Counted from the first letter of the whole stretch, positions 25,735-61,419 are shown. The stretch: 61,419 nt of DNA, filler included, from 10 parts of 10 records of this genome joined end to end with filler, not necessarily neighbours in it; one strand, 5' to 3'. Notes: generated from the sequence alone by a model not told the origin. Made by a program: numbers and translations.

Positions 25735-25834
25735 NNNNNNNNNNNNNNNNNNNNNNNNNNNNNNNNNNNNNNNNNNNNTTAATTAATTAANNNNNNNNNN
25801 NNNNNNNNNNNNNNNNNNNNNNNNNNNNNNNNNN

Positions 25835-30041: not shown

Positions 30042-30085
30042 CGCCTCCGGGAGGCCCAGCAGCAGGCTCGGCAGTGCACTTGAAA

Positions 30086-30769
30086 ATGCGCAGCTGCAGG
30101 TCGCTGTGTACAGCGGCCCAGCGGCCATTCCGGACGCTCGGGCTGCAGCAAGTGGCGGTGTGGCCGGCTGGCCTCTGCCGCCCGCTCACGGGCTGCGCCG
30201 GCCAGATCGGCTCGCTCAACAAAGGGGGACTGAGCAAGCTGTGGGGCAGCGTGCTGGGGGTGCCCAAGTGCGAGCAGGGCCGGGCCGGCGGGTCACTGGT
30301 CGGTGCAGGGTGGGCAGCTTCAAGTCAGACAAGGAGAACGTGGACGAGGATATTCACCAGCTCGGCTCCGGGCCGCTGGCTGTGGAGCTCGATCTGATGC
30401 AGCCGCTGGACGCTGGGCGCAGCCCCAAGGTGCACGTACCGCCGCTCAACCACCTGGGCCTGTGGGTGGACGACCTGTCCGCGGTGAGCGGCGCTGTGCG
30501 GGTGACCTGTGCCTGACTAGTGCCAGGCGGTGACCTGGCTTGAGCGGAGCGGCGTCCGATTCGCCCCGGGCGGCATCCGCAAGGGGGCGGCGGGGCACGA
30601 GGTGGCCTTCATTCACCCCAAGCCCAAGTGCGTGCACTCGCATGTAGCAGCCTAGCATGATGGCCTGGGTGTCAGCGCCGAGTTCCCACTCAGCGGCGAA
30701 GGGGTGCTGATCGAACTCGTGCAAGCTCCCACCGAGGTGATTCAAGCTCACGATGCGATCGCATCGTAA
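30086..30769 (+). CDS. VOC/glyoxalase (methylmalonyl-CoA epimerase-like) protein with mitochondrial-like presequence, 4 introns
   Basis: Motifs [58 protein letters not shown] and [12 protein letters not shown]. Confidence 0.85.
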
Positions 30770-31085
30770 AGCTACGTACAACTCGTTAGAACTAACAAGT
30801 GTATACGCTCTGAGTAGTGAAGTAGGTCGGTACAGAGCCTATGGCACCTATCCGCTATGTGAGGTTCGATCAGCGTTACAATACAGTCAGCTGACACGCT
30901 GACAGCAGGCAGCAGCTCGGCATCTTTTTTGTGTCGTAACGGATCGGGTACCAGTCTCGGGCATTCGAACTTGCCGTGGCCGCCAGGCACGCCAGCTTCG
31001 CAGGGTTTGGGTGGTGCGTCGGCCGAGCTGGTGCCGCGTGTTAATCGCTCCGCGCAGAGCACAGAGCGGCCTGAGCGCCGTCGAG

Positions 31086-34000
31086 ATGGAGGGCAACGTC
31101 GGGGAGGAGTTGCCGCAGGATGTCGAGGACAACCTGGCGGAGGACACCACATCGATGGACATCGGGCAGGTGGGCTGAGGCCGGATCCTCGGGGGCTGCG
31201 CGCCGACCGCTGTCGCCGGTTTGGCAGGTGGAGGAGTATCTGGCTGCGGTCGGGCCAGCGATGCTCGGCGACACTCCGTCCAACCAGGGCTTCCTGGACC
31301 AGCTGCGCATGGTGACAGTGGCGGCTGCGGCCGGGAAATGGCTGGCTCTTACGCAGCTGGACTGTCAGGGGGCTGCGCACGAGAAGCTACGCCAATTCGT
31401 GAACGACCCGCAAGTGTCTGTATTCACCGTCTCCAAGGTGGTCATGGGCGGCGATGGGAACCAGCCGGCCCGGTGCAGGTGAAGGACGACGGCGACGACC
31501 CGATGATCGATCAGGCACCCTCCGAATACACATTCGAACTCGAGGTTTCGTTCCTGGGCACCAAAAATTCCCAGGTCTGTAGAACAGCAGCTGGCTGCTC
31601 GTTACAGCAGGGCCAGGTGGCGTTCATCAAAAGGCAGGCGGCAGCGCTGGACGGGAGTCGTCCGTGCGCTGCACAGCTACAGGTGATCTGCGGCGGGCTG
31701 CCGACATTTGCTCAGCTGTTGTGGGGCAGGCAATCGACCTGGGCAATGGAGTGCCTTTTGAGACACTGCACTCGTACATTCACTCCACGTTCTCGCCCCT
31801 CTTCCACTCGTACGTGATGAAGACCCAGCGGTTCGACAAGGTCTGTGCTGTTTAGCTGTGTTGAGCGGCCAGTAACCGAATGTAATCTACCAGGAGGTCA
31901 GTGAGAAGAAACAGGGAATCCCTGCGGTTAAGAAAAAGATGCAAGAGTTGGAGCAATCCCTCTTACAGTGTCAGCAAAGTCTCGAGATCCCGGAGGTTGG
32001 CCCGATCCAGAAGGTCGGCTTATCGGAGTGGGCCTAGGTGCACCTGGAAATCGACCAGCATGTGAAGCGAGTGGCGCTGGCTGCAAAGGTGCGACTTGCT
32101 GTGTACACAGCTCAAGCTGCCCCTTGTAGGATGCTAATCGGAAGCTGGATGTGGAGGAGTTCAGCGATCTCATCGGCGATTCTGAGTTCCTCAACAGCAT
32201 CCAAGGTGGCGTGAATCGATGGGTGAGGCCAACCAGCTGGGCTCGCACTGATGCCACCATGTCTGTGACAGATTCGTGAGATCCAACGTGTGTATAAGCA
32301 TCAACGAGACCCAAGCTCTGGACCAGCAATTCAGGAAATCAATTTTCATCTTGGTAACAATCACGCTTATGATAGTTGCTGATTGGGTGGCTGTGCCCTC
32401 GGAAAGGCTCTTCTGATAGTATTCCCAACAGTCTTGTGTAAAAGTTGTTGGCCCCAGTAGCGCACTGCTGTTCATGCTGTTGCCTGTGTAATAATCCGCC
32501 GTGCTTGCTGCAGGCCATGAGAGTGCTCTTCTTGACGTAGTTGAGCAGCTGAAGCAACCTGAGATCGATGTGACGCTGTCGTTGCTTAAGCAGGCCAAAC
32601 GATTCCATGCCACAATGGGTCTAGATACTGCTGCCCAAAAGCTTCACAACACTGTCACCAGAGTTCAGAATTACAATCAACTCATGCACGATTTTCCGAT
32701 TAATGATCTCCTTGGGGCATCAGAGGTGCCTGCAATCATTGCAGCCATCCAAGCCATTTTCAAGCACATGACAGTGCTCAAGACCAAGAATCTGATGTAT
32801 CCTGTCGAACGCGCTGTCAAGCTGGTCGAGGCCATTTCACGTGACGTCACTGATGTGCTGGTGCGCATGCTTTCTGCCAAGCGCCCAATGCAGTTGCCCT
32901 ATGACAATTTTGAGAGTCTCACTGCTGGTTGTGAAACGCTCTTCAAAACATGGGAGGAGCTGGTCGAGAAGGATTTCAGGCACAAGGTGCTGAAATATTT
33001 GGCGGATCGTCAAGTCAGGGGGCAAACAAACTTCAAACTGAAGATTGTTCATGAGCTCGGTCCACTGCGGGATCGAATTGAAGCCATCCGACAATTCAGG
33101 AGGCAGCACGAGGAATTGAATCTTGTGATCAACACAGTGCTTGGGAATACAGCCTCCTCTGAATTCAACACTGAGACTGAGCTAAGGAATGCATTTGAAC
33201 ATGTGAAGGGCATTGACGTTCTGGACGTCACAGCAGATGGTCAGGAGGCGTGGCGATTTGCAATGGAACAATATGACAATAGCATAGACCGCATTGAAGG
33301 TCGTGTCACTGCCAAGTTGCAAGACAAGCTGGGTGCTTGTCGAAATGCAAATGAAATGTTCCGTGTCTTCTCTAAGTTCAACGCTCTGTTCTACCTGCCC
33401 AAGATCCGAGGGGCCATTCAGCAATATCAGACCCAACTCATCGACCGCGTCAAGAATGATATCAAGGGATTGCAAGAAAAGTTTAAGCATGGTTATCCAA
33501 AATCAGAAGCGTACAAAATGTCAAAGCTTCGCGACTTGCCTGATGTTGCAGGGTCAATTATCTGGGCCCGTCAGATTGAGCACCAGTTGGATATGTACCT
33601 GAATCGTGTGCGAGATGTCCTTGGTGAAGATTGGGAGCAGGACAATGATGGCCGCATTCTCAAGCAAGAAAGTGAGACATTCCGCAAGAAGCTGAATGCT
33701 GAATCTTTGTATTCAAACTGGGCCAACGAAATGGGGGAGCATAGCTCAGAGATTCGTGGTGAGATTTTTGAAGTGGGACGCAAGGGTGGCAATCTGGTGC
33801 TCCAAGTGCACTATGATCCTGCCACCATAACGATGTTCAAGGAAGTGAGAAACTTCAAGTGGCTAGGCTTTCGACCCAGCACTGATATCAACATGATGGC
33901 AAGTCAGGCAAGAGATATCTACCCATCTGCCATGTCTCTGAGGGAGACACTGCGAACATACCACCAGTCCTGCTTCAGGATCAGTGAGCACGTGAGACCA

Positions 34001-37000
34001 CTGATTGCCAGCCACAAGGTCTCAGTGCAGAATTTGATCAGCGAGGGAGTGAATCTGAGATGGGAGGACAAGAAGAAGGAGCTCCAGTCTTATGCACAGC
34101 GTCTTGCAGACGAGGTCTTGTCTTTCCAGGATGCAGTCAATGAGCTACTGGCAGTCGACAAAAAAATTGAGCGCCAGCTTTCATCCCTGGCATCTTGTGC
34201 CTGGGACAAGCAAGCATTCCAGCAAATACTTGAAGACGTTCAAAAGCTAGTGGATGATTTGAACCTTGCATCCCACTCCAACCTAGAATTGTGGGTTGAT
34301 GCTCAGAACAAGAAGATAGAAGATCACCTTGTGGCTCGGCTCCAAGAAGGCATATCAGTGTGGAACTCAGTTTTCAATGAGACTGCTGGCGATGCGCAGA
34401 ATCCCAAGTCAGTGGACGATGAGGACGATGATCATAAACCCAAGTGTGATCTCCAGGTGCAGTCATCTGTCCATCAAATCAAGATCAGGAACCAATTGAT
34501 GTACTTGGATCCACCACTCGAGTTTGCTCGGAAGAACTGGGTTGGGCAACTGCACGTTTATCTGGGTATCATCTGCAACCTGCCAACGCTAAAGAGTTCA
34601 AGGTATGATGCGTGGGCAGCTGGTGTGGGCAGCAGTGAGGTTGACCAAGGCCCAGCATTCTACACTCATCTTCTGAAGCGGCTCCCACAAGGCGAGCTTG
34701 AGAGTGCTTACAATTCAATTGAGGCTCATCTGGAACACGTCAGACAATATGTTGAGACGTGGCTTCAATACCAAGCCCTTTGGGATATGCAAGCTAGTTA
34801 CATCTATGAACGACTGGGTGACGATATTAATCTATGGCAGCAGCTGCTCACTGAAATTAAGCTGGCACGGACCACTTTTGACACCAGTGAGACCTTCAAG
34901 GAATATGGCCCTGTCAAAATTGATTATCGTCAGGTCCAGGCAAAGGTGAACAACAAGTACGACGCATGGCACAAGGAACTTCTGAGCCAATTCGGACAAC
35001 GGCTTGGCACAGCATTGGTAACCTTCCATTCTGATGTCTCAGATGCACGCAGCAAGCTGGAGCGCACTGTGGTCGAGTTCAGCACAGCGGAGGCTGTTGC
35101 ATTTCTGACCCAGCTTCAGGACTTCAAGCAAAAGGCCCAGACTTGGGAATCAGAGGTTGAAGGGTTCCAGAATGGGCAGATCCTGCTGCAGAAGCAACGC
35201 TTTCAGTTCCCACAAGATTGGCTCTATTATGATCACGTCGCTGGCGAATGGAGTGCATTCCAGGAGATTTTGCGCCGCAAGAATGAGGAAGTTGCCTCCG
35301 AAATCCCAGAGCTACGCAAGAAGATCATTGAAGAAGATAAATCCTTGCAAGTCAGAGTCAATGATGTGCAGAGTGAGTGGAGTGCGAGCAAGCCGCTCCG
35401 TGGCTCAATCCCATGCGCGGACGCACTGGGTACTCTGCAAGTATATGATAGCCGTGTCAGCCAGCTGCAGGAGCACATGACATTGCTTGCACAGGCCAAG
35501 CAGGCACTTGAACTGGAGGTTTCAACAACAACAAGCCTTGAACTAGTGATTGAGGAGATATCAGACCTGAAGGGTGTATGGGAGGCGATTGCTTCAGTCT
35601 GGCAGGAGCTGACGCCCATCCGTGAAACTGCCTGGTCAGCCGTGATCCCGCGGAAAATTCGGACATTTCTGGACGAGGTTGGCGAGAAACTCAAAGAGTT
35701 GCCTTCGAGGTTCAAGTCCTACGAGGCTTATGAGTTCCTACGCAATCAGATTAAGAGCTACCAGAAAGTCAACTCTCTTGTTGCTGATTTGCGGTCTGAG
35801 GCAATGCGAGATAGGCACTGGAAAACACTATTGACAAAGCTTAACATGCACTGTCTCTTCTCAGAGCTTACTCTGGGGGCACTGTGGGATACTGATCTTG
35901 AAGCTCAAAGTAAGATTGTGCAAGATGTGATTCGGGTAGCCCAAGGAGAGCTTGCACTGGAGATGTTCCTTGCAGGCGTGCGCGAATTTTATGAGACATT
36001 CGAGCTCGAGACGGTCAGCTATCAAGGCAAATGTCGGCTCATCAAGGGCTGGGACGATCTGTTCACTAAATTGAATGACCATCTGCAAAGTCTGGGGTCC
36101 ATGAAAATGTCTCCGTTCTTCAAAACATTTGAGGAGGAGGCACTGAGCTGGGAGGACAAAGTCAATCGTGCTCGTAACATGTTTGATGTTTGGATTGATG
36201 TACAGCGCCGGTGGGTCTATTTGGAGGGAATCTTCTATGGCAGCGCCGATATCAAGCACACGCTGCCTAATGAGTACTCCCGCTTCAAGAGCATTGACAA
36301 TGAGTTCTTGAACATGATGAAGAAGGCAATGAAGACGCCCAACGTGTTGGAAATACTCAACATACAGGGCCAGCAGCGCACGCTGGATCGTATCTCAGAT
36401 CTACTGAGTAAGATTCAGAAGGCGCTCAGTGAATATCTTGAGAAGGAGCGTTCTAGCTTTCCAAGATTTTACTTTGTTGGAGATGAAGACTTGCTCGAAA
36501 TTATTGGGAACTCGAAAGACCCAGTCAAGATTCAAAAGCACCTACGTAAGATGTTTGCTGGGCTGGCATTGCTTCAGTTCTCAGAGGATGCTTCGGAAGT
36601 GCACGGTATGGAGTCTGCTGAGGGTGAAGTAGTGCCATTCAACACTGCTGTTCAAGTCAAGGATAGGAAGATGAATGAATGGCTGCAGAGCGTGCAAGAA
36701 ATGATGGTGCTGTCCCTCGCTAAGCATCTCGAAAATTCATTGGAAGCCTCCAAGCCCTTATATGCTGGTGGCAAATTCGATGCCCCTGGATACTGTGATT
36801 GGGCAGCTAAGTTCCCAGCTCAAATTACGCTGTTGAGTACCCAAGTAATGATTACGCAACTAGTCGAGCAGGCTTTGGATGGTGGCGAGGCAGCCATGTC
36901 CTCAACTGTGGCCCTTTTCCAGCAGATCCTGGATTGCCTTGCAGATCAGGTGCTCACACCATCTTCAACCAACCTTCTCCGGAAGTATGAACAGCTGATC

Positions 37001-38544
37001 AAGGAGCTTGTCCATGGGCGAGATGCCCTGAGGATCCTGATCAAGGACCAAGTGAAATCCAAAAGTGATTTCAAATGGCTGTACTTCATGCGCTTCTACT
37101 ATGACACAGCTTGCAAAGAGATTGATAGCAGGCTTGTCGTACGAGTGGCCAATGCATCATTCCTCTATGGGTATGAATACTTGGGGATCAATGATGGCCT
37201 CGTACAGACTCCATTGATTGATTCTACCTATCTGACCCTGACACAGGCTCTGCACAGCCGTCTTGGTGGCTCACCATTTGGGCCTGCTGGAACTGGCAAG
37301 ACTGAATCTGTCAAGGCATTGGGCGCACAGTTGGGAAGGTATGTCATTGTTTTCAACTGCGATGAAAATTTCGATTTGCTTGCTATGGGCCGAATCTTTG
37401 TTGGCCTCTGTCAATGTGGAGCCTGGGGTTGCTTTGATGAATTCAATCGGCTTGAAGAACGCATTCTTTCGGCAGTATCCCAACAGATCCTTACCATACA
37501 GTCTGGGCTGCGTGACGAAAGCAGTGAGATTGAACTCATGAACAAGGGCTGTGCTTTGAATAGCGACACAGGCATCTTTGTGACAATGAATCCTGGTTAT
37601 GCTGGCCGGTCCAATCTTCCAGACAACCTGAAGCAGCTGTTCCATCAAGCAGCAATGATCAAACCAGACAGGCAGTCGATTGCACAGGTGACACTGTATT
37701 CTCAGGGTTTCCAAACCGCTGAGGTATTGTCACAGAAGGTAGTGCCACTGTTCAATCTCTGTGCAGACCAACTCTCTCAGCAGCCCCACTATGATTTTGG
37801 CCTGCGGGCCTTAAAGTATGTGTTGGTGAGTGCTGGCAATCTCAAACGGAAGAGCCTTGCAGCTGATACCACTGTGGGTGAACACGACGAAGCCGGATTC
37901 TTGATCAGAAGCATGTGTGACACCATGATTCCCAAGCTGGTGCAGCAGGACATTCCTCTGTTCAACTCATTGATCTGTGATGTGTTCCCTGGAGCAGATA
38001 TTGCACCACCTGGTCTGGAGGAGCTCACAGCAGAGATCCACAGACAGTGCGAAAAGCGTTCCCTGTGCCCAGGACCACTCTGGATTCAAAAGATTTTGCA
38101 ACTGTACCAGATTCAGAATATTGCCCATGGTGTCATGCTTGTGGGACCATCTGGTGTTGGCAAGACTACGGCATGGAAAGTGCTGCTAAAGGCATTGCAG
38201 GTGGTGGATGGAATAGAGGGTGTCTCATATGTAATGGACCCCAAAGCAATTACCAAGGAGCAGTTATATGGCTCCCTTGATCCCACAACGCGAGAATGGA
38301 CTGATGGTGTCTTCACTGCTACACTGCGTAAGATCGTTGACAATATGAGAGGTGAGGCTAGCAAGCGGCACTGGATTCTATTTGATGGTGATGTCGACCC
38401 TGAATGGGTTGAGAACCTCAACTCTGTCCTTGATGACAACAAGTTGTTGACCCTGCCAAATGGAGAGCGTCTAATCATACCATCAAATGTCCGAATTATG
38501 TTTGAAGTGGAGAACCTCAAGTATGCCACCCTTGCCACAGTCAG
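31086..38544 (+). CDS. DYNC1H1: Cytoplasmic dynein-1 heavy chain (3'-truncated)
   Basis: Motifs AKRFHAT, MHDFPINDLL, SKLRDLP..AGSIIWARQI, FPRFYFVGDEDLLEIIG, GGSPFGPAGTGKTESVK (AAA1), GPSGVGKT (AAA2) and DGDVDPEWVENLNSVLDDNK. About nine introns before 32514, then one long exon. Confidence 0.97.
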
Positions 38545-38644
38545 NNNNNNNNNNNNNNNNNNNNNNNNNNNNNNNNNNNNNNNNNNNNTTAATTAATTAA
38601 NNNNNNNNNNNNNNNNNNNNNNNNNNNNNNNNNNNNNNNNNNNN

Positions 38645-42094: not shown

Positions 42095-42446
42095 CCAACA
42101 GCTGACGATCACAAGTCATTGTATAACTGAAGGCTTCCGTCATGTATCGTATACAATTATCATTGTACAGCATTACAATCATATTACAATCATGATTGTA
42201 CATGTACGGTACACTCAAAATGTCGGCGGGGCAGGTCCTAAATGCACTTCGTGTAAGACTCTAAATCCCCGTACTTAAGACCCAAATAAACTTACCTTTC
42301 TAAATCCCTTCGTCTGAGAGCGGTGCGACCAAGGGGACTAGGATTTNNNNNNNNNNNNNNNNNNNNNNNNNNNNNNNNNNNNNNNNNNNNTTAATTAATT
42401 AANNNNNNNNNNNNNNNNNNNNNNNNNNNNNNNNNNNNNNNNNNNN

Positions 42447-45623: not shown

Positions 45624-45714
45624 GGTCCCGGGGCCCCGGACCGGTGTATAACGGCAACTGAACTCAACTGATCCTGAACAACAACTGATCCCGGACGTCC
45701 AGGGATCAGGAGCG

Positions 45715-47736
45715 ATGCTGCCGGCCCAGCTGGCCGGCTGTGCCACGGTGCTGCACCCTGCGTTCCTCAGCCTGTCGCCTGCACTCGGCCTGGCCGCCAC
45801 CAACAGCAGCCTCACCCGCAACCTGGCCGGGCTGCGCGCGTCGGCCCCCGAGGCCCTGCTGGCGCGCGAGCTGTTTCTGCACGCCGGGGGCAAGCTGCGG
45901 CCGACCACCACCCGGTCCAAGCCCGGCGCGCACCTGGACACCGCCGCCTGGGGCTCGCTGATCGGGCTGGCCGTCGGACCGGCCGGGGCCGAACGGGTGG
46001 ATCAGGTCCTCAGAGGCGAGCACCAAATCGCCACCCGGCTGGGCAACCAGAGCCGGCCGCCCCCGAGCTTTGGGCGGTACTGCCGGCTGGTCGAGTTGGT
46101 GCGCCAGGCGCTGCGCACTGGGCGTGGGGCCGGGCTGCTCGCGCAATACACCTGGGAGAAAGCCGCTTCCAAAGCTGACCTTTTGCACTTCCTGCAGGCA
46201 CTGCACAGGACGTCGCCGCAGCCGGTGCTCCGGGCCGAGTTCGCCGAGAGCGAGGCGGCGCAACAGGCCTGGCTGGAGGACGAGTTCAGCGAGGCCGAGC
46301 TCAGCTGCGGCGACCGGATGGCGAGCGCGGCGCTCAGAGTGCTGGACGAGCGCGGATCCGACCTCGAATGGGCGCGGCACTTTGAGGCAGTGACTGCTGG
46401 GCTGAGCAGACTGGGCGGGTCCCGGACGCCGGTCCGGCTCCGGCGGTTTATGTATGGGCAGGGGAAAGAGGTGCCGGATTGCGTGGAGGTGGCTGTGAGG
46501 GAGCTCGTAGAGTTGGTGCTCTTTAGACCGCACAACCAGCAGTTTGACCTCGCCAGGCTGCCCGGACCGGCCGCCCCGGCGCTCAGGCGGTTCTTTGAGA
46601 TGGCGAATGATAAGCTGCGAAGAGGAGGGGCTGCTCAGTCCGAGCAGGAGCAGGCGGGCGAGTGGTTTGCGCTCTGCCAGGACCTGCCGACCGGACAAGC
46701 AAGCAACGGCATGGCGCTGCACCAGCCTGGCGACCACGGGCTGGAGTACGTGAGCCGAGCGCCGTGCGGCGGCTTGTTCGAGCTCAAGCCCACTACGCGC
46801 ACGATTGCGCGCGCGCTGCACCAGCTGCTGCTCGGTGGAGAAGGCGAGCGGCCGTGGGACTCGTTGGAGGAGTTTGCACAGTTCTGGAGGGCAAGGCAGC
46901 CAGGCTGCTCGCTCAAGGTGACCGAGGAGAGGCAGATACGGCGGAGCTTGGTGAGCGAGGGCTCTGCCATCACGCAGCGGGCGACGGTCTGGCTGGACGG
47001 GCAGGCAATGCACATTGAGCTCGATCCAATCAAGAACATCGCCACCTGCCGGCACGTGCCATGCACCCCCGAGTGGGCCTTACCGGGCAGCGACGTGCAC
47101 AGCGCCCATCTAGCTCGAGCGCTCGGCGGTTCTAATGAGACTTCGCCCAGAATGAGCGCGCTGTCGCTGGTCTGGCCAGCGCTGCTAGGCAGCGCCGCTT
47201 TGGACGCTCTATCGTTAGGCAGCTTTTCTCCGACCGCCCTGCAGGCGATGAGGGCGGTGATGGCGGCCGACTTCGATGAGCAGTATGTGGATGAGTCCGG
47301 GTTCAAAGTGGCCGACATGACAATCGCTGAAGCAGCGCGAGCCCGCCGAAATGCCGGCAGACGAGTGCTTGATGCAATCCGAATCGTCACCAGGTTAGCC
47401 AGCCACCGGGCCGACTTCGGGAGTCGTGATACGCACCTACAAGGCGATAATGCGGCCGCGGAGATGGCGCAAGACAGCTTGCCGTGGTTGCTGCGGCTGG
47501 CGCCGGCGGAGCTGAGTGCCAGGGAGGTGGCATTTGCCTTGTCTGGACTTTCTCCAGAGCTTTTGCTCGCAGATGCTGAGCTGAGAGAAGCTTTAGACCA
47601 GCGAGATGGCGGGATGTTGACACGGATGGTGGAGTTTGAAGCCGAATCGGTCCCGCTGCGCGATGCCTTTAAAGGGCTGGGCTCGAGACATTTAATCGAC
47701 ATGGCACGCTTTGTTGCTGGCACCGCGATTAAATGA
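45715..47736 (+). CDS. Intronless hypothetical protein with PDCVE motif
   Basis: 673-aa ATG ORF with core VPDCVEVAVRELVELVLF...FDLARLP...EWFALCQDLP...LEYV...FELKPT. Confidence 0.75.
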   Translation: MLPAQLAGCATVLHPAFLSLSPALGLAATNSSLTRNLAGLRASAPEALLARELFLHAGGKLRPTTTRSKPGAHLDTAAWGSLIGLAVGPAGAERVDQVLRGEHQIATRLGNQSRPPPSFGRYCRLVELVRQALRTGRGAGLLAQYTWEKAASKADLLHFLQALHRTSPQPVLRAEFAESEAAQQAWLEDEFSEAELSCGDRMASAALRVLDERGSDLEWARHFEAVTAGLSRLGGSRTPVRLRRFMYGQGKEVPDCVEVAVRELVELVLFRPHNQQFDLARLPGPAAPALRRFFEMANDKLRRGGAAQSEQEQAGEWFALCQDLPTGQASNGMALHQPGDHGLEYVSRAPCGGLFELKPTTRTIARALHQLLLGGEGERPWDSLEEFAQFWRARQPGCSLKVTEERQIRRSLVSEGSAITQRATVWLDGQAMHIELDPIKNIATCRHVPCTPEWALPGSDVHSAHLARALGGSNETSPRMSALSLVWPALLGSAALDALSLGSFSPTALQAMRAVMAADFDEQYVDESGFKVADMTIAEAARARRNAGRRVLDAIRIVTRLASHRADFGSRDTHLQGDNAAAEMAQDSLPWLLRLAPAELSAREVAFALSGLSPELLLADAELREALDQRDGGMLTRMVEFEAESVPLRDAFKGLGSRHLIDMARFVAGTAIK

Positions 47737-48727: not shown

Positions 48728-48827
48728 NNNNNNNNNNNNNNNNNNNNNNNNNNNNNNNNNNNNNNNNNNNNTTAATTAATTAANNNNNNNNNNNNNNNNN
48801 NNNNNNNNNNNNNNNNNNNNNNNNNNN

Positions 48828-51800
48828 AACCGGGACGGGGTGATCGACCGGGCCGAGTTTGAGCGGGGCTGGAAGGGCAGCAAGCGGAGCAACGACCAGT
48901 GGGCCGCTCAGATGATGAAGGAGATGCAAATGGTCGAGGAAGCGCTCACTCCCGACCGGTTTGGCCACCGGCCGCCGGCTGTGGCTGCCTCGCCCACCCC
49001 AGCCCCGCCGCTAGCCCAGTCGGCCGTGCGCGCAGTGGTGGTGCTCAACGGCTCAGTGGACAGCCTGCCGGTCCCGAGGCGAGCCTGGGACGAGGCTCTG
49101 TGCACGGATGTTGCTTCGGCGATCGGGACGCGGCCGGAGCGGGTGGTGGTGGCGGCCGTCGAGCCGGGCTCGGTAGTGGCTTGGTTGGACCTGCTGCCCG
49201 GCGGACCGCTCGAGGCAAGCTCTGAAGAGCTGGGGAGCACGCTCGTAGCTGTGGTAGCCGACAGCGCCAGCAGGCTGTATCGGGGCCGCGTGACTGCAGA
49301 CCTGAACCGGAGTGAAACGCTGAGCATGCTCGCCAACCTCGGGAGTGTCGCCAAGCCGGAGCCGAGCCCGAGCACAATTGACAGCTCTCTCGCGGTGCGG
49401 CGGTCGGTGCAAGCGGTGTATGTCGCAGTGAACCACTGGAAGCAGTGCAAGATGCAGGGGATGAACGACCGGTGGAGGAAGGTTGCTGCTGAGAAGAAGC
49501 GAGCACGGATGGGCTGTCTTGAAGCAACAGTCAAGTACAGGCACGATCAGGTGGCGCATGCAGTGGTGCTTTGGTGGAAGGTCTGCATGGTCGAACGGGA
49601 CGGTGCAAACATGGTCGACTGGGTGGTGGCGTTTGGGAAGGGCCAGGGACAAGCTGCCAGCTTCTCGAGCTGGCGGGTGCAGACCGCCATCGCAGTATCC
49701 CTTGCCACATTCGAACAACAGGCCAGCCAGCATTTTGAGCGGCACGCCATGGCTAATGCGATGGCTATTTGGAGAGTCCTAACCACCGAGAATGGGGCGC
49801 TCAAGCATTTGACCCAGAGAGGTGGTGTCAAGCTCCGGAAGCTAAGAACTTCCCTAGCTGTGGCGCACTGGATTGCTATCTCGGGTGACATCGGGTGCAG
49901 GCGGGCGTCGCTAGAGGCAGCCAAAAGGTGGTGGCGACGAGCCCAATTCAGACGTGCACTTGCAAGCTGGGGCCAGCGAGGGTCGGTGGTGGGGACAGTC
50001 AAGCAGCTTGAATCGAGCGGAAGGCCACTGCTATTCAAGTTTCAATTGCAGAATGGGATTAAAGATTGGCGCAGGGTGAGCCTGGAGCTGCGTGAATCGC
50101 TCTCATTACTTCAGTGGGCTTCAGTCTGGTGGGCATTTAGAGTTGTACAGAGCACTCTGTCGCAGTGGCACCAGTCTAGTGGACATTTGCAGCATGCTAG
50201 CAAGGGCTTGGAGAGCTCAAAGCAATTTTGGACTGGTAGTGCACTCGTGATCCGGCTCCAGCACTGGAGGGTGGTAGCACGCAAGATGCACGCATTGGAA
50301 TCTCAGGCGCACTCCTCCCAGTGGTATTGGCAGCTTCGGCAAATGCTCCGAGTGTGGGACTTTTGGTCATATCGAACGTGCTTGACAAAGGAGCTGTCAG
50401 CTGCTGAGCTCGGTGCCCTAAAACACTGGAACCGAAAGCTCTGCCGTGCCGCTCTCTGTACTTGGATCCATGGCTCTGCCTCGCCAGCACTCAACAGCAC
50501 TGCAATGCGATTCTGGAGAGGCAATGAGAGAGTTAGACGATTCGACCAATGGCGATCAAAGACAGATGAGTTGCTTGCGCAGCTGCATACAATGAGAAGC
50601 GTGCTGGCAAGGATGCAAAACGGCGTGCTGGCACGTGCGCTGACCACTTGGTGCACAGAGACAAGAGACGCGCAGCATGCAAGAGAGGTGGCAATGGCAG
50701 CTGTACAGCGCTTGCGGCAACTCAATCTTCATTTTGCCATGAATACTTGGCGTTCGCAAGTTGATCACGCGTTGCAGAGCATTGCTGCTGATGACAAAGT
50801 CAGATATGCAATATGCAATGCCTTTGGAAGCGAGCTGCATCGTGCTCTCCTCCTTTGGCGGATGGATGCCCAAGGTGCTCTTGCCGAAAAGAGCTCAATC
50901 GGGAAGGCCAGTGCCCAGATGTTCAACGTGCTTTTGCGCGCTGGATGGAATAAGTGGCGGTCTGACTTTTGTCAAGCAGTTGACGAGCTCGCGGCACTTC
51001 TCAAAGCTGTCAGGACATGGTCAATGCCAAAAGCATCAGCTGCGCTCAGAACATGGTACAGTGCCTCGACTGAAGCGCGCGAAGCCAAGATAGCTACGCG
51101 TGCGGTGATAAAACGATGGAAGATGAAACATCTGATGCGAGGCCTGTTGAAATGGCGTGAAGTTTATACTCAGGCGCAGGATATGCACGAGTTGTGGCAA
51201 AACTTGTATGAATGCTACAGCCAGGCCTTCAAGCTCAACTTGATCCCTGAAGCATTGGCCTCAGCGGGTCGACAGCGTCGCCAAAAGCTGGGGTATTATG
51301 CCCGCTTCTTTTACACAGGGCAGCTCCATTCTTACATTTCTGAGTGGAGGACCTTAGCAGCAGACGGATCAGTGACAAAGGAGAGTTGTCATCGTGCTGC
51401 CAAGGCGTTCCTTTTGAGTGCAGAACGTCGCGCGATGAACAAGTGGCTGGAATATCACATTGAACTTCTCGAAGGTAAGCGGTCTTGCCTGCGAGCACTT
51501 TCAATCTGGCAGCATCGTGATTTGTTTCGCGCTTTCTATACCATGCGTGAAATAGCAGAGGCCACCCGGGATACAAGAAAGCACTTGAAAATGGTGGCAG
51601 CAAAGATTTCGCAGGTGCACCTATGGCGCGCTTTCAATACATGGCTTGCAGAGAGAGGTGACCAGCATTCTGATGGTGCTCAAATGCGCCGTGCGGCGCA
51701 ATGGTGGCTGCAGCGTGGCCGAGTCTGGTGTACATTGTTATGGCGCCATGTTGCAAGCCATGCTCGAATATTGCAGGTCTCGCTCGCTATTGGGGCACAT

Positions 51801-52998
51801 CACTACAGAATCTCCACTCTGCTCCATTGGTTGGCGCTCTGGCAGCTGCAAAACCGGGAACGAGCCACCAGAGAGCCTAAGAGGAGACCGAGCCAAACTG
51901 TGGCTAGACCGTATGTGGGTGTGGCCTCCCAGGGTGGAGTGCCACAGAAGATAACAAATCTGGATGGCCCAATGGGTAGGTCTATTCGCTCTGGTTTCCT
52001 AGGTACCCGGTCCAAGCAAGTTTACAACACACCTAATCTATCAGCACAAGCAACCGTCGAGTCTCGGTCTCCCACTGAAGCCATTGACCGCATGTTTGAT
52101 GCTGCTGATGTGAACGCAGACGGGGTGCTTGACCGTAAAGAGTTTGTTGCAGCATTCCAGCGCGGTACTATAGTGATTCCTCAGGTCAGTACCTGGATTA
52201 GAATGATGTTGATGCGTTGACTGCAGGCCCTGCAACAAGCCAGATCTCACCAAGATGAGCCTAGTAGAAGCAATACACACATAAGTTCCAAGGGGAGGGA
52301 AAGAGCCAGACCGTTAGGCTGGTCTGTGCCAGCTGGCTCTGAGCAGCCTGAGGTATGTGCCTGCTAATGCGCTGAATATAGGACTGAACATGGTGATGAA
52401 GGTGCTACCCCAGCAGGACACAGCAGCTCACCAGGACACACAGCAACTGCAATCTAGCAGGAACCGCAGACCAGGAGAAACACAACCGAGGTCCATGTCA
52501 CGGAGCCAGAATGAGGAACACCAAGCTGCTGAAGGGGATGGCTCTGCTTCGGCTGTGAAAGCAAAGTACCAACAGCTTGCTCATTTGTTTGAGACTGCAC
52601 CATCCTCTGGTACGAACTGCCCATCCATGATGCGCTTGACCAGTTTGATAGGTGCACTGCAAGGGCTTTTTACGAGATATGCTAGTCCTGAAGGTGAGCT
52701 TACCAGCCAAAAATTCGGAAGGATGATGATTGATACTGGGTTTGTTGACACCACGTTGACTTCAGGTGAGCCTTCTTTAGCCGCCCCTGTTCCCACAGTC
52801 CCGGGAGGTCTTGATTTCACCGCGGTAGGTGTGGTCAACATAGCATTTCTTCAAGCGATTAGAACAGGTCCAAAACGAAGATCGCGGATGCAGTGGTCTC
52901 AGTTTCTTCTCGGACTGGCCATGGTCACAATGCGCAAATACCCGATTGCGACGCCTCACGAAGCACTCGAAGCGGCCAGTGTAAATCACATGCGATAA
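48828..52998 (+). CDS. Sfi1-like Trp-repeat protein with EF-hands and C-terminal p25-alpha/TPPP-like domain, 5'-truncated
   Basis: Regularly spaced (A/F)xxW repeats; EF loop DVNADGVLDRKE. GT-AG introns near 52185 and 52353 keep the frame into LFTRYAS..LTSQKFGRMMIDTG...MQWSQFLLGLAMVTMRKYP. Confidence 0.65.
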
Positions 52999-53908
52999 AA
53001 TGTGAACCGAAAATTTAATAAAAGTACTCGTATCACGAGTGTATAGAAAGATTCTGTCCGGCACTGACTGGCAGGGGTGCCACGTGTACCTTGTCGAGTG
53101 CTGATTCAAGAGGAGCTAATGGATGCCGATCTGATCGATGACGTCGCTGCCCGAGTGCACGTTGTGCCGGTGATCTTTCATGTTCTCCACTTTACAATAG
53201 CTTTTTGGCTTGGCCCGCGGACAGGGCTGCGGTTTAGGGCTGCAATTAATTATTCAGCATGTCGCCATTGACGGCCATTCCCGAGCAGCTCGGCAGGTTT
53301 CCTGGCAATAGCGGCTCGCTTCGAGCTCCGGCGAGCAGCGGATNNNNNNNNNNNNNNNNNNNNNNNNNNNNNNNNNNNNNNNNNNNNTTAATTAATTAAN
53401 NNNNNNNNNNNNNNNNNNNNNNNNNNNNNNNNNNNNNNNNNNNACTTGCGGGACGCATGTCAAAGATTTGGGGTGCCCGATCCGAATCAGGAGGACAACC
53501 TGAGGCACGAGCACCAGCTGCCTCACGGAGCACAGCGGGCGTGGCTACCCGGGCACATGCCAGCGTTGGTGAACCATCTATCGGAGGGAAGCCCCAGCTC
53601 GGCCCTTACGCTGGTGAACACGAGCGTGGCTGAGCCGAGGAGGTATTCACACAACAATATCGTACTGTAACACACCTCAAATCTTGACGCTCACATACGT
53701 GTACATGTAGAATAGACATCACCGAGTACCCAATGAGCGCTGGATTTGTCACTATAAAGTAGTTATCAATAAATAAAGCATAGTCAATTGAATAAAGAGG
53801 AAATGTAAATGGCTCTTGGATTCACATTTTGATGTCGGCTCTAATGAACATGCTAAGCTTGTACCCGTCCTGGGCAGTGCCATTAAATAACAAGCTAGCA
53901 ACGGATGA

Positions 53909-55747
<1,839 letters not shown>

Positions 55748-55833
55748 GCTTCCGCCGCTCGCCGGCGGGAAGTCCGTTAACTTTGTGGTGGCCCGCTCGA
55801 ACCCGCTCGATCGCATCGTCGCATTACTAGCAT

Positions 55834-57665
55834 ATGCTCGGTGAGCCCGAGGCAGGCTGACCAGTGGCCGAGGCCGCGGGGGGCAGACATCAACTTGTTT
55901 CGAGAGGAGAAGGGCGGCAATCCGGAGCTGGTGCGCGAGTCCCAGCGCCAGCGGTATGCTCGCGTTGAAGACGTGGACGACGTGATCGCACTCGACCTCG
56001 CCTGGCGCGCCGGTGCCCTGCCAGCCAGCCGGCTTGGGCCAGCCCGGGCGGGCAGTGCTGCAGGCTACTGAAGCTGCCCGGAAGAAGCGCTCGCAGGTGC
56101 AGAAGCAGATCACTGATGCGTTCAAGGTCGGCTCGCCCGGCGGCCCGGCGCCCACTGGCTCCTGCAGAAAAAGGAGCAGCCGGCGGATGAGCTCGTGGCT
56201 GAGAAGGACGCGCTCGACGCCCAGCTGAAGCAGGCGCTGCCGGCGCGGTGGGTCGGTCTGAGTGGAGCTGGGTAGATGGATTTGGATCTGGCGGCGGCAG
56301 CGCAGCAGCGGGACAACAAGCTAAAAACCATCGGCAATATCGTGCACGGGTCGGTGCCTGTGAACGACGACGAGGCGCGCGACGGCCGACGGCAGCGCGT
56401 GTGAGCCTGGCGGACAGGAGTACAATGATCCGGTGCACAACACGTGCGGTGGGCTGAAGGATACGCCGGCGGCGCGGGAGGGGCTGTTCAACCATGTCGA
56501 CCTGATGCGGATGCTAGACATCATGGACTGCGAGCGCGGAACCACCATCGCTGGGGACCGGGGCTATTTCCTGAAGAACGAGGGCGTGCTGCTCAACCAA
56601 GCTATGCAGTCGCTGGCCTCTTGCCACCTCATGTCTCGCGGGTTCAATATGCTGCAGGCGACGCTCTTGCGGCGCCGGGGCTGACTGGAGGCCAGACGCC
56701 GTTTTTTATGGTGCGCGAGATGATGTCTCAGTGCGCCCAGCTGGAGGAATTCCACGAAGCGCTGTACAAGGTATTGGCAGCCCTGAGTGCTCGGCTGACA
56801 GCACGCAGGTGGTGGCCAAAGATCCGGAGCCTGGGGCAGCCGACAGTGGAGACATCAAGTACCTGATCGCCACCTCGGAGCAGCCGCTGGCCTGCTACCA
56901 CGCCAACGAGTCAATTAATTGCGACAAATTCCCTCTCAGGTGCTCACTGCGACCCGGGCACTCCCGGATGCTGGCTGCAGGTACGCCGGACTGTCGACAT
57001 GCTTCCGGAAGGAGGCCGGCAAGCATGGCAAGGACACGGGCGGGATCTTCCGGACCCATCAGTTCGAGAAAGTGGAGCAGTTTGTGTATTGCAACCCTGA
57101 AGAGTCGTGGAAGGAGATGGAGCTGCTCATCAACAACGCGATGGTGCACCACAGCGCGGCTGCCGCCCATCCTGCCCGCAGGACTTTTACACCGCGCTGG
57201 AGATTCCGTTCCGTGTGGTCAACATTGTGTCCGGCGAGCTGAACAACGCTGCGGCAAAGAAGTACGACCTAGAGGGATGGTACCCCGGTGCTGAGGGCGG
57301 CGGCACCTGGCGCGAGCTGGTCTCCTGTTCCAACTGCACAGACTACCAGGCACTGTGCATCGCCGGGTGCCCGCGTCGAGCCCGGGGACAGGCTCGCAGG
57401 CTAAACACCAAGTTTGGAGAGAAGGGTGGGTCTCCTCCGTGCCACATGCTCAACTCGACACTGACGGCATGCGAACGGACGATGTGCTGTCTGGTGGAGA
57501 ATTACCAGGTGCCGTCGCCAGGGTGGGTGGTGGGGGAGCTGGGGACAGAACCTAGAGAAGGGCGGGATTGATATCCCTGCGCCACTACGGCCGTACCTTG
57601 GAGGGCGAGACTTCATTCCGTTCAAGTTCAAGATAGATAAAAAGGGCAAGCTGGTTCCTGTTTAA
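55834..57665 (+). CDS. SARS1: Cytosolic seryl-tRNA synthetase, 11 introns
   Basis: Motifs [69 protein letters not shown] and HMLNSTL. Confidence 0.97.
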
Positions 57666-57877
57666 TTTTATGGGCCAAAATGTGCTCTCAACCGTGAGCT
57701 CGTTCATGGTCCTCATAGAGCTCACAAAATAGTTTGGGTGTTGTGGTGCGCTTGAAAATTCCAACTCAAGAGCTTTCAATCTAACGAACAATTACAGGAA
57801 TCGAATTAAAAATAAAAATACAGTGTAACTCCGTGTCACTCCTCGAGCAGGGGTGTCGCGAATCACGACACACACAC

Positions 57878-58269
57878 ATGGCCTTGCTTCGTGGGCTTGC
57901 GTTTACGCTCTGCGCGGCGGCAGCCTGGGCGCAGTCCCCAGGTAACGGCATCTCCAAGCAGACCTACTCTGTCACCGACCCCCAGGCCTCCTTCACCTTC
58001 TTCGCCAAATACTTGCCAATCCATTGCGGCGACCCCGTGGCAATGTGCAACTCATCCGACGCGGGCTGCGGGCAGAAGGGCCGGTCCAACCTGTGCTCCG
58101 AGAGCGACAACACCACCTGCACCGGTAACGCGTTTGACGGTTTCATGTTCCACATGGTCAACACCTCGGCCCGGCCTTCTGGGACGCACTCGGTGGCCGA
58201 GCTCGAGCAGATCTACGACCAGAAGATGGCCGAGGCGTTTGCAGCCAACCGGTACGATGCGTTCATGGA
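57878..58269 (+). CDS. Secreted protein, possibly VOC-like fold, 3'-truncated
   Basis: Signal peptide MALLRGLAFTLCAAAAWA; SVTDPQASFTFFAKYL. Confidence 0.6.
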
Positions 58270-58369
58270 NNNNNNNNNNNNNNNNNNNNNNNNNNNNNNN
58301 NNNNNNNNNNNNNTTAATTAATTAANNNNNNNNNNNNNNNNNNNNNNNNNNNNNNNNNNNNNNNNNNNN

Positions 58370-59580
58370 CCAGGATGCCCATGGTGAGCCGCCCGACCCA
58401 GGGCACCAGATCCCCAGGGCTGAGCCACCGGCCTGTCTGCAGCCTAGTGAGCTCCACCAGCTCCTGCGCCAGCTCCAGCCCCATCAACCGGTGCGACAAC
58501 GGCACCGGCTGCCCCGGCCCGGTCCAATGCATGGACAGCTGTAGGTACATTTGTTCGACCGCCGCCGCCGCTTCCTTGGCTCCTGAAGTCCTTCGGAGCA
58601 GCCCAGCAGCGCCGTGGACTATCCTGTCCAGCTGCCCTCTGCTCACCGCCCGGAGCTCGGCCTCGCTCGCGCTGCGCAGCCCGACCCACAGCTCTGGGGG
58701 CAGTCCGGCAGTGAGCCGGCAAACTGCCTGCCTGGTGAGCAGAGGGCTGATCTTGTGGAGCGCGTCTACGGCCCGGCAGGCGAGCACAAGAGGCGGCTTG
58801 CCCACCACTCCCCGGAGCGCCTCGATCGTCCCCCCGGCCGCCGCCTGGTTGATCAGCTCCACAAGCCATCCGCCGAGCGGCACTGTGTCGCGCAACACCG
58901 CCGCAGTCGGCCAGCCCGGTGATGACTCATCGTCAGCCACCTCATACCGCGCCGGGGGCAGCTCCAGTGCCAGGCGCGGCCCAGCCAGCCGGTTCAGCCC
59001 GGGGTGCGATCGGAGCACCCACATCGGCCGCAGCTGCCCGGGCACCTCTAGTTGCAGCCGCGCTCTCGGACCGTCCGGACACGGCTCGTCCCCTAATACC
59101 TTGCACCGCCGCCACTGGCCAGCCGGGCTGTTGGGCAGCCTGAGCAGCACCGGGTCGCCCGGCCCGAGCCCCTCCCGCCAGGCCTCCCGCACCCCGGCCG
59201 GCAGGTTGTAATTGGCGTGCACCCAACTCTCCGGGTCCAGCGCCGCCGCAGCCGTCTCCACCCGCAGCTCAATCGGCCCAGCCTCCACCGCGGCCAGCGC
59301 CGCGCTCACGAACTTGCGCAGCGCGGCGCCGGTCGGGCTGGGCGGCACCAGTTGGTCCGGGTAGCTCCGGTTGAGCGCGGCGGCCACGGCTTTGGGGAGC
59401 CAGCCGGCGTCGGCAGGCCGGCCAAGCATCCCGGCGGCCCGGGTGAGCGGCCGGCGCGGGTCCGGCTCGAGCGCGATCGAGCGGACCAGCGCCTGGTCGG
59501 CCGTGTCCCGGGGCATCGCCCCTGGCAGCTGGCCCTCACTGAGCACTACTCAGTGGGGCTGGTCCCTCCTGCCTGAGCAT
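58370..59580 (-). CDS. N-terminal part of a large helical protein, USP9/24/34-like, 3'-truncated
   Basis: SEAELRAVSR...LSHRLMGLELAQEL...WLSPGDLVPWV resembles the ARM region of large USPs; first intron is GC-AG. Confidence 0.5.
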
Positions 59581-59656
59581 GCTTTTCCGTTGGATTTCCA
59601 ACGGCGAGGCCGGAGGTGGCCAGTGTGCTCGGAGTTGGTGGGTTGAGTCGGCAGCC

Positions 59657-61258
59657 ATGTCGTGCTCTGCGGTGTTCATCCTGGATGCCAAGGGCAAGAT
59701 CATCATCAACCGCAACTACCGCGGGGACATCCCAATGACAGTGGCCGAGAAGTTCTCCCAGTACATTTCCGAGACTGAGGAGGAAGACCTACGGCCGGTC
59801 CTGCCCGCGCCCCTGGCCCCGGCCCACGCCGGCCGGCCCAGGTGGTTGTCGACAACGGGGTTGTGTTTTGCTACGTCAAGTACAACAACCTGTACCTTCT
59901 GGCCGTCACCAAGCGCAATGCCAACGCTGCGGTGATCGTGCTCTTCCTGTACCGTTTGGTCCACGTGCGTTCGCTGGCCGGGGGGTAGGGTCAAGCGAGG
60001 GGGGCAGGTGTTTAAAAACTACTTCAAGGAGCTGGAGGAGGAGAGCATTCGGGACAACTTTGTGATCATCTACGAGCTGCTCGACGAGATGATGGACTTT
60101 GGGTACCCGCAGGTCCGCCCAGCACCTGTGGCCCCGGGGCCAGCGGCGGCAGACCACCGAGCCCAAGATCCTCAAGGAGTTCATCCTGCAGGAGGGCCAC
60201 AAGGCGCCCCCTCCCCGCCCGCAGCTGCCGGCTGACCGCCTGCCCGCAGCTTGAGGTAAAACCACCGATGGCAGTAACCAACGCTGTGTCCTGGCGGAGC
60301 GAAGGGATCAAATACCGGAAGAACGAGATCTTCCTGGACGTGATCGAGTCGGTCAACCTGCTTGTCTCCGGGAGCGGGTGCCTCCCCGGCTGGCAAGGGC
60401 TCACGCGCTTGCAGTGCGATCCTCCGTTCGGAGATCCTCGGAGCGCTCAAGATGCGGTCGTACCTGTCCGGGATGCCTGAACTCAAACTGGGGCTCAACG
60501 ACCGCGTGCTGTTCGAGCAGGCCGGGCGCAGCGTGGGCAAGGTGCCGCGGCAGCTTGCCCATCAGCTGAGCCTGGCCCGCCGCAGGGCAAGGCTGTCGAC
60601 CTCGAAGATATTAAGTTCCACCAGTGTGTCCGCCTGGCTCGGTTCGAAAACGACCGGACTATCTCGTTCATCCCGCCCGACGGCGAGTTCGAGCTCATGT
60701 CGTACCGGCTCTCCACGCAGGTTCGGCCGATCATTTGGATCGAAGCTGTCGTCGAGCCGCACTCGCATAGCAGGATCGAGTATATGATTAAGGCCAAATC
60801 GCAATTCAAGCAGCGATCCACGGCCAACAACGTCGAGATCCTGATCCCCGTCCCGCCGGATGCCTCCTCCCCAAGTGCTGTATCAGACTGGCCGCCCGCT
60901 GAGCAGGGGGGCGCAGGCTTCAAGACGAGCATCGGTTCGGTCAAGTATGCGCCGGAGCTGGATTGCATCATCTGGTCAATCAAGCAGTTCCAGGGCGGCA
61001 AGGAGTACCTGATGCGGGCGCACTTTGGGCTGCCTTCCGTTACGTGCGAGGACACGGATAAGAAGAAGCCTCTCTCAGTTAAGTTTGAGATTCCATACTT
61101 CACTGTGTCAGGGATACAGGCGGCTTCCAACGGCGGGCTCAGCTCAGCTGGTGGGGCAGGTGCGCTACTTGAAGATCATCGAGCGGAGTGGGTACCAGGC
61201 GCTGCCCTGGGTACGGTATATTACCCAGAACGGCACATATGAGCTGCGGATGGGCTGA
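59657..61258 (+). CDS. AP1M1: AP-1 complex subunit mu, 8 introns
   Basis: [64 protein letters not shown] and [14 protein letters not shown]. Confidence 0.97.
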
Positions 61259-61419
61259 TCGGGCCGCTGGCGCGAATAGCTAGCATAGCGCAGCTCTAGG
61301 CTGGTCGAGCCGGCTCGAGACAAAATCAGGTCAGATGTCAATCAAGAATCAGCAATCAACCTGATTTTATATTCATGATTAAATAGATGCTCAGATACAT
61401 GTACTCACAGAGTCCCCGC

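Follow-up and report, generated by a model that had tools for sequence, protein, structure and literature searches.

How can introns of about 40 nt be recognised when a large share of them start with GC instead of GT? The question is raised by a window of 61,419 nucleotides (the whole stretch of DNA that was analysed, with positions counted from its first letter), and mainly by three of its genes, those for seryl-tRNA synthetase (SerRS), the mu subunit of the AP-1 complex (AP1M) and methionine aminopeptidase 2 (MetAP2). A first-pass annotation, which relied on hand-splicing, had counted about 9 GC donors in 36 introns. We find 8 in 36 (22%), so that the share is indeed high, and we consider, with a probability of about three in four, that these are ordinary introns of the major spliceosome (U2-type), miniaturised and saturated with G and C, in a marine protist whose nuclear genome is GC-rich.

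The window is not a single chromosome stretch: ten contig pieces are chained via nine linkers of the form N44-TTAATTAATTAA-N44, so that gene order across a linker is meaningless and the pieces are not necessarily neighbours in the genome. Its G+C content varies between 48 and 68% (2-kb bins). The piece at 53444-58269 carries MetAP2 on the minus strand, SerRS on the plus strand and the beginning of another gene, and the piece at 58370-61419 carries a 389-amino-acid open reading frame (ORF) on the minus strand and AP1M on the plus strand. A dynein heavy chain gene lies on the piece at 25835-38544. The intron sample consisted of 36 introns from these four conserved genes (SerRS 11, AP1M 8, MetAP2 8, dynein 9), and signal statistics were calculated for the 27 introns of SerRS, AP1M and MetAP2.

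Exon boundaries were established in two ways. For homology, a purpose-written protein-to-genome spliced aligner was used, with relatives retrieved using single exons. For RNA, a search of public runs showed that 16 of them, marine metatranscriptomes or metagenomes belonging to 6 studies, contain part of the stretch; the four best RNA runs came from a single study, and their contigs were compared with positions 53444-58269, that is, with SerRS and MetAP2. The RNA joints used are those among the joints listed, and the figures for intron coverage by RNA are therefore lower bounds.

GC-AG introns in RNA and in protein alignments

Removal of 11 introns from SerRS yields a complete reading frame with a single terminal stop, which aligns with 72 to 75% identity to three relatives (P0002, P0003 and P0006). 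RNA joints were found for at least 7 of these introns, three of them GC-AG and four GT-AG (56013-56055, 56127-56167, 56771-56808 and 57509-57548, among the joints listed). Three joints, 56231>56274, 56372>56416 and 56654>56693, which skip 42, 43 and 38 nt, are unreadable as GT-AG. The cuts they permit are AG..GT, GG..TA and GC..AG for the intron at 56234-56275; AG..AC, GG..CA, GC..AG and CG..GG for the one at 56375-56417, where the ambiguity spans three letters; and CA..GC, AG..CC, GG..CA and GC..AG for the one at 56658-56695. Each time, GC..AG is the sole known splice pair. RNA junctions had been suggested as the check for such introns, and over 53444-58269 they confirm these three, allowing a GT cut in none. 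The contig pieces flanking the three joints have no mismatch to the exons of the window, so that the RNA stems from this organism or from one nearly identical to it.

In MetAP2, the joints listed include three GT-AG introns (55124-55161, 55225-55270 and 54115-54156). RNA contig pieces also begin at the edges of its two GC-AG introns, at 55023 for the intron at 54987-55023 and at 54747/54748 for the one at 54708-54748; the basis of these two junctions is homology. Among all introns with a listed RNA joint, the share of GC donors is 3 of 10.

A few odd joints (54253>54437, 56885>57045/57056, 56888>57056 and 56901>56994) were left unused, having non-splice ends, short sides or mismatches. In the interval 56885-57056 the depth of RNA contigs rises to 28, and loose ends are found at 56860 and 57037/57082. 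We take the odd joints to reflect contigs of other organisms that match conserved stretches only, those of this interval probably being SerRS transcripts that match just the conserved flanks.

The remaining five GC introns are placed by gapless alignments to proteins that are 84 to 98.6% identical and mostly derived from transcripts. For the fourth SerRS intron, 57350-57391, the protein is P0001, with 138 of 157 residues identical (88%). The AP1M model, a complete frame with a single terminal stop, aligns without a gap over 421 amino acids, 413 of which are identical in P0016, and reaches 98.6% identity with P0020/P0022; these relatives (98 to 98.6% identical) are predicted on contigs of mRNA length (1.3 to 1.7 kb). 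The junction left by intron 60204-60249, QEGHK^LEVKPP (^ marks a splice junction), is gapless with respect to P0016. MetAP2, with eight introns removed, is likewise a complete frame with a single terminal stop, and is gapless against P0248, P0130 and P0129 at 84, 82 and 92% identity, respectively.

Altogether, the first-pass annotation had placed the four GC introns of SerRS (4 of 11) and the two of AP1M (2 of 8) exactly where we find them. Its two MetAP2 introns also stand, out of a total of 8 introns and not 7, and its count of none for dynein holds, since nine GT-AG introns suffice to give an open frame of 2311 amino acids. For the gene of a QueH-type epoxyqueuosine reductase, its single GC-AG intron exists as a 37-nt candidate; however, a 28-nt GT-AG cut, in frame as well, is also possible there. 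We left this candidate out of the counts, and the total is therefore 8 and not 9. Per gene class, GC donors amount to 8 of 27 introns in the three GC-rich genes and 0 of 9 in dynein. The overall number is far above a 1% expectation (binomial P = 2e-9). Phase 0 accounts for seven of the eight GC introns, and the acceptor is AG in 36 of 36 introns. Coordinates are given in Table 1.

Table 1. Genes, GC-AG introns and other features of the window
Feature	Position	Strand	Description
SerRS gene	55834..57665	+	459 codons; 7 GT-AG and 4 GC-AG introns, 38-46 nt long
GC-AG intron, SerRS	56234-56275	+	42 nt; CAG^GCGCTG..GGGTAG^A; RNA skip in 2 runs (X1, X2)
GC-AG intron, SerRS	56375-56417	+	43 nt; RNA skip in 2 runs (X1, X2)
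GC-AG intron, SerRS	56658-56695	+	38 nt; CTGAC 11 nt from 3' end; RNA skip in 3 runs (X1, X2, X3)
GC-AG intron, SerRS	57350-57391	+	42 nt; set by homology only, gapless against P0001
AP1M gene	59657..61258	+	421 codons; 6 GT-AG and 2 GC-AG introns, 37-46 nt long
GC-AG intron, AP1M	60204-60249	+	46 nt; AAG^GCGCCC..CCCGCAG^C; CTGAC 14 nt from 3' end
GC-AG intron, AP1M	61120-61159	+	40 nt; CAG^GCGGCT..GGGGCAG^G; junction identical to P0016
MetAP2 gene	53909..55747	-	496 codons; 6 GT-AG and 2 GC-AG introns, 36-62 nt long
GC-AG intron, MetAP2	54987-55023	-	37 nt; CAG^GCGGCC..GACGCAG^G; gapless against P0248, P0130 and P0129
GC-AG intron, MetAP2	54708-54748	-	41 nt; phase 1; AAG^GCAGCT..AGGGCAG^G; gapless against the same three relatives
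Dynein heavy chain, 5' part	31086..38544	+	9 GT-AG introns in the first 1.4 kb, then a 6-kb exon to the contig end
QueH-like gene	24179-25049	-	Pfam QueH, 7.8e-46; PDB QueH, 5e-14
Candidate GC-AG intron, QueH	24563-24599	-	37 nt; CAG^GCGCGG..GGGGCAG^GTG
Intronless long ORF	19068-21251	+	Pfam zf-4CXXC_R1
Intronless long ORF	40400-41980	+	Pfam GH32 N/C
Intronless long ORF	45685-47325	+	no Pfam match
Intronless long ORF	48828-52217	+	Pfam EF-hand
Linkers N44-TTAATTAATTAA-N44	9485-9584, 13228-13327, 16642-16741, 25735-25834, 38545-38644, 42347-42446, 48728-48827, 53344-53443, 58270-58369		

Could hand-splicing nevertheless have produced the GC donors, while the organism really uses GT donors close by or other frames? 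Six of the eight GC introns have an in-frame GT..AG alternative no more than 30 nt away, the QueH case is ambiguous, and in one instance our aligner wrongly called a GC intron, at 56777-56829, in a variable stretch of SerRS where the RNA has the GT-AG intron 56771-56808. Homology with relatives at 72 to 75% identity is thus unsafe by itself. The three SerRS introns set by RNA joints nevertheless permit no GT cut; the in-frame 24-nt GT alternative for 56234-56275, for example, differs from the cut seen in RNA. For two introns, 56658-56695 and 54708-54748, a search within 30 nt gave no in-frame GT alternative. Replacing 57350-57391 by its GT alternative, 57355-57399, costs one gap and one substitution, and removes a residue from a conserved QARRL stretch. 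In AP1M, the GC model is identical to the 98% identical protein at both junctions, and a model restricted to GT scores 74 lower and loses 11 identities. GT-only models of SerRS score 138 to 165 below those allowing GT and GC, which recover all four GC introns. In a decoy control, the 15 remaining dinucleotides were admitted one at a time as donors beside GT, and in each gene it was GC that raised the score most (by 154, 74 and 96, as compared with 102, 45 and 71 for the best decoys). We conclude that an artefact is hardly credible as an explanation.

Splice signals and exon context

As had been claimed from the hand-spliced genes, every GC donor is preceded by an exonic AG (8 of 8), compared with 14 of 28 GT donors (Fisher P = 0.013, 36 introns). 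Within the three GC-rich genes alone, AG precedes 8 of 8 GC and 7 of 19 GT donors (P = 0.003); seen from the exon, donors that follow AG are GC in 8 of 15 cases, and donors that do not, in 0 of 12. Among the 27 donors, G is found 23 times at -1 and 21 times at +3, C 15 times at +4, and G only 6 times at +5, and there is no consensus at +5 and +6. The GC donors have G or A at +3 in all eight cases, C at +4 in four, G at +5 in one and T at +6 in two, so that they do not conform to the RAGT consensus; the GT introns depart from it in the same way.

At the 3' end, C occupies -3 in 26 of 27 introns and G occupies -4 in 21, and the first exon base is G in 15, which gives a GCAG^G acceptor. The sequence GCAG is present in 21 of 27 introns, and C is found at -5 in 8. 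No polypyrimidine tract precedes the AG in these 27 introns, the composition from -17 to -3 being G 43%, C 35%, T 12% and A 10%. A branch-like motif, CT[C/G]A[C/G], occurs in 14 of the 27 introns, compared with 5.5 +/- 1.9 in dinucleotide shuffles, and none of 1000 shuffles reached 14. In 13 of its 17 occurrences the A lies 10 to 16 nt from the 3' end, where it may, as judged from the motif, serve as a branch site; the form CTGAC is found in 5 of 27 introns. Signals of the U12 type were absent from all 36 introns, whether the [A/G]TATCC donor or the TCCTTAAC-like branch site was looked for. Lengths are narrowly distributed, with 35 of 36 introns at 33 to 62 nt, a median of about 42 nt and one intron of 160 nt. 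The length is divisible by three in 5 of the 27 introns, 4 of which have no in-frame stop, in what is a small sample.

The tight clustering of lengths, the lack of a pyrimidine tract and the G-rich acceptors thus bear out the earlier description, and the absence of consensus is real for +4 to +6, though not for +3. To call the intronic signals degenerate is apt for +4 to +6 and for the tract; it is overstated in view of the G at +3, the GCAG^G acceptor and the CT[C/G]A[C/G] motif, the latter two of which had been missed.

How a GC donor could be tolerated

Under the reading that we favour, U1, U5 and U6 would be unchanged, T would have been turned into C by GC-biased mutation or gene conversion, and splice sites would be recognised through intron definition. 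The introns are reduced to about 36 to 62 nt and have 75% G+C, and the pressure towards GC would have eroded the AT-rich signals, namely the pyrimidine tract, the T at +2 and the A, G and T at +4 to +6, which are largely gone. An AG^G(T/C)G(C) donor, a GCAG^G acceptor and a narrow length are left, together with CT[C/G]A[C/G] in roughly every second intron. With C instead of T at +2, one pair with U1 would be lost, a loss tolerated only where the exon supplies A at -2 and G at -1. After an exonic AG, the change from T to C at +2 would be nearly neutral, and GC and GT would be similarly common there, as in the three genes (8 and 7, respectively). The proposal of the first-pass annotation that the spliceosome relies on exonic pairing together with intron length is a reasonable one in this respect, given the exonic AG in 8 of 8 cases, the clustering of lengths and the weakness of +4 to +6 and of the tract.

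Several observations weigh against this reading. Five of the eight GC introns are supported by homology and not by RNA. The branch-like motif is missing from roughly one intron in two. Both classes of donor form about 4.4 Watson-Crick pairs with the textbook 5' end of U1, plus one wobble pair, and this weak pairing leaves room for a changed small nuclear RNA (snRNA) or protein factor. The link with local G+C content has the direction that the reading would lead one to expect, as GC-donor introns lie towards the upper end for G+C (72 to 88%, GT introns 49 to 92%) and dynein, the gene with lower G+C, has no GC donor; it is not significant, however (Mann-Whitney P = 0.053, and P = 0.16 for 8 of 27 compared with 0 of 9 introns). 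Third codon positions have 77 to 81% G+C (GC3) in SerRS, AP1M and MetAP2, as against 55% in the dynein ORF. Finally, the sample is small, with 36 introns from four genes picked for conservation, in one window of short contigs linked by N.

The splicing machinery itself may have been re-tuned, along the lines of the altered U1/U6 snRNA or U2AF that the first-pass annotation had put forward, a changed U1 5' end, U6 ACAGAG box, U5 loop or U2AF/SF1 now reading AG^G(U/C)GC and G-rich 3' ends. GC and GU would then be near-equivalent by design, and not merely tolerated. The C-rich letters at +4 to +6, which do not pair with textbook U1 (the longest run of pairs is 3.6 to 4.6), are what one would expect in that case, as are the absent pyrimidine tract and the G at -4 of the acceptor (21 of 27), which is not a standard requirement. 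Moreover, the account of Ostreococcus introns in PMC2483917 describes GTGCGTG donors and calls complementary snRNA changes worth exploring. However, the strict association of GC donors with an exonic AG is a prediction of unchanged U1, and Aureococcus and Micromonas pusilla have comparable shares of GC donors together with a textbook U1 5' end, according to the data reported in PMC3033335; an altered snRNA is thus not needed for the pattern. Nothing speaks directly for re-tuned machinery: a scan of the window with Rfam gave no match at gathering scores, and the three matches obtained at E <= 1 were at chance level, with no spliceosomal snRNA among them. We therefore hold a re-tuned machinery to be unlikely.

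Are the introns recent gains?

The uniform lengths and ends of these introns would also be expected if they were recent gains of a single spreading, introner-like element, in which case the GC donors would be the element's own ends. M. pusilla and Aureococcus are both classic introner hosts and classic GC-donor-rich genomes. In AP1M, two ORFs 92% identical to its product over 60008-61258, P0257 (315 amino acids) and P0258 (247 amino acids), run unbroken across 6 and 4 of its intron positions. They are predicted on contigs of 13 kb and 8 kb, which may be DNA or RNA; if they are DNA, close relatives exist that lack these AP1M introns. Against a common element, however, the interiors of the 27 introns are no more alike than shuffled sequences, with a maximal local score of 13 compared with 12 to 15, and a mean of 7.75 compared with 7.09. 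To our knowledge, any introner described so far is far larger than 36 to 46 nt. An introner origin seems to us very improbable.

A combined scenario may be considered, in which this lineage has re-tuned its recognition of the 5' splice site to an exonic AG, G at +1, G at +3 and a length of 36 to 46 nt, either by a change in the U1 5' end or through U5/U6 and proteins. Many of the mini-introns might then be young, since the 92% identical AP1M ORFs of relatives cross 4 to 6 of their positions. This scenario is, in our judgement, rather doubtful.

The other relatives of AP1M were of two kinds. For the close ones, all contigs found were cDNA-like, their exons being about 80% identical at the nucleotide level, and the genomic contigs found were distant (58 to 79% identity), with few introns and ordinary GT donors. 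One of the latter, a 1.8-kb contig with an AP1M that is 79% identical, has a lone GT-AG intron of 199 nt (L033:291-489), at or near the position of the second AP1M intron of the window, 59965-60007.

Comparison with other GC-rich marine protists

The expectation of about 1% GC donors is correct for model organisms; it leaves aside the 14 to 56% published for GC-rich marine protists. GC-AG introns make up 0.37 to 0.87% of introns in the five model species for which Sheth et al. 2006 (PMC1557818) give figures, and GT-AG accounts for 98 to 99% in animals, fungi and plants, in the values quoted in PMC7072748. In Emiliania huxleyi, Feldmesser et al. 2014 (PMC4028052) report GC donors at 135 of 241 hand-mapped junctions (56%), 9 of which were verified by reverse-transcription PCR; the genome has 65% G+C, to which the shift in donors is ascribed there, and the acceptor remains AG. 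Iwata & Gotoh 2011 (PMC3033335) list, by annotation, 39.6% GC donors for Aureococcus anophagefferens and 22.2% for M. pusilla; the U1 5' end is textbook in both, the origin of the GC donors is termed an enigma, and the splice signals of Aureococcus are described as having a large 'information deficit'. For the pelagophytes Aureococcus and Pelagomonas calceolata, a preprint (bioRxiv 10.1101/2024.10.30.620910) gives 14 to 17% GC donors and mean introns of 103 to 177 bp.

The introns of the window resemble those of these protists. In such sets, GC donors reach 10% or more, the acceptor is invariably AG and the sequence is GC-rich; the corresponding figures here are 8 of 36, 36 of 36 and 75% G+C in introns. 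E. huxleyi is likewise marine and GC-rich, with a large share of GC-AG introns and the AG acceptor kept, at 56% of 241 hand-mapped junctions in the published set as compared with 8 of 36 here. In Aureococcus, M. pusilla and Pelagomonas, the shares reported are 14 to 40%, for genomes of 64 to 70% G+C. Differences concern intron size and lineage. The published means for Aureococcus and Pelagomonas, 103 to 177 bp, contrast with a median of about 42 nt, and the nearest named protein is not from the lineages of Aureococcus, Micromonas or Pelagomonas; it is filed under Telonema subtile. Introns of E. huxleyi measure a few hundred nt, those of the window about 40 nt. The simplest view is that the habit of using GC donors is the one already known from Emiliania, Aureococcus and M. 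pusilla, which here appears in introns of about 40 nt and, probably, in a different lineage.

Weak signals have also been noted in lineages with short introns (PMC2483917). In Ostreococcus lucimarinus, a picoeukaryote that is likewise GC-rich, the introns outside chromosome 2, as described by Irimia & Roy 2008 (PMC2483917), have GTGCGTG as donor, ACTGAC as branch motif and CGCAG as acceptor, which are similar in flavour to the G(T/C)GC, CT[C/G]A[C/G] and GCAG found here. However, the Ostreococcus signals are strict (ACTGAC in 87%) and belong to an intron-poor genome, whereas those of the window are loose (CTGAC in 5 of 27) and belong to intron-dense genes. The distance from branch site to AG is 20 to 35 nt in that account and 10 to 16 nt here, and GC donors lie outside the description it gives. 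With the U2-type GC-AG introns of model organisms, the likeness lies in the dinucleotides and in a better match elsewhere in the donor, which, according to the analysis in PMC1557818, offsets the mismatch of U1 at +2. In those species the compensation is both exonic and intronic, at frequencies of 0.37 to 0.87%; here it is exonic only (A at -2, G at -1), because +4 to +6 have no U1-like consensus in either class of donor, and the frequency is 22%.

A public set of protist proteins contains, filed as T. subtile, an entry that shares 98.6% identity with the AP1M product; two further transcriptome-derived entries of the same set are 97 to 98% identical to it, and haptophyte proteins 79%. The close relatives of SerRS and MetAP2 are all without a name. 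By protein similarity, the source organism probably belongs to the telonemids or is closely related to them, although the T. subtile entry may be a contaminant of its transcriptome. In a literature search for nuclear intron structure in Telonemia or Telonema, the search results contained no description.

These results have a practical side. Gene finders that accept GT donors only and require a pyrimidine tract would break about one in two gene models in such a genome, GC donors being present in three of the four genes checked. For assemblies of this kind, the annotation rule would be to allow GC only after an exonic AG, with a GCAG^G acceptor and a length of 36 to 46 nt. A further, probably unrelated lineage joins the GC-rich marine protists with abundant GC donors, and the effect is seen in very short introns. 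This supports base-composition pressure, buffered by pairing on the exon side, as the driver of the shift from GT to GC; the finding of GC donors alone reveals no new machinery.

Other genes of the window

An ab initio parser based on codon usage and allowing short introns was tried and dropped, since it gave wrong boundaries even in its three training genes and over-called GC donors.

The dynein gene contains the Pfam domains DHC_N1 and DHC_N2. Eight of its introns measure 33 to 58 nt and one 160 nt; six of the nine were recovered using dyneins of 35 to 43% identity, and three follow from continuity of the frame alone. Its single exon at 32514-38544 on the plus strand, with a GC3 of 55%, contrasts with the nine introns of the preceding 1.4 kb. 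Intron density and base composition are thus strongly uneven, both between genes and within dynein.

The QueH-like gene sits in an otherwise eukaryotic nuclear context and is broken by one mini-intron, its two Pfam pieces being in different frames.

Immediately 5' of AP1M, the minus strand carries the 389-amino-acid ORF (58371-59537), which is uninterrupted, has 72.5% G+C and gave no match in a Pfam search. Long intronless ORFs of 547 to 1146 amino acids, with weak or absent Pfam matches (Table 1), contrast with the 8 to 11 introns of the housekeeping genes.

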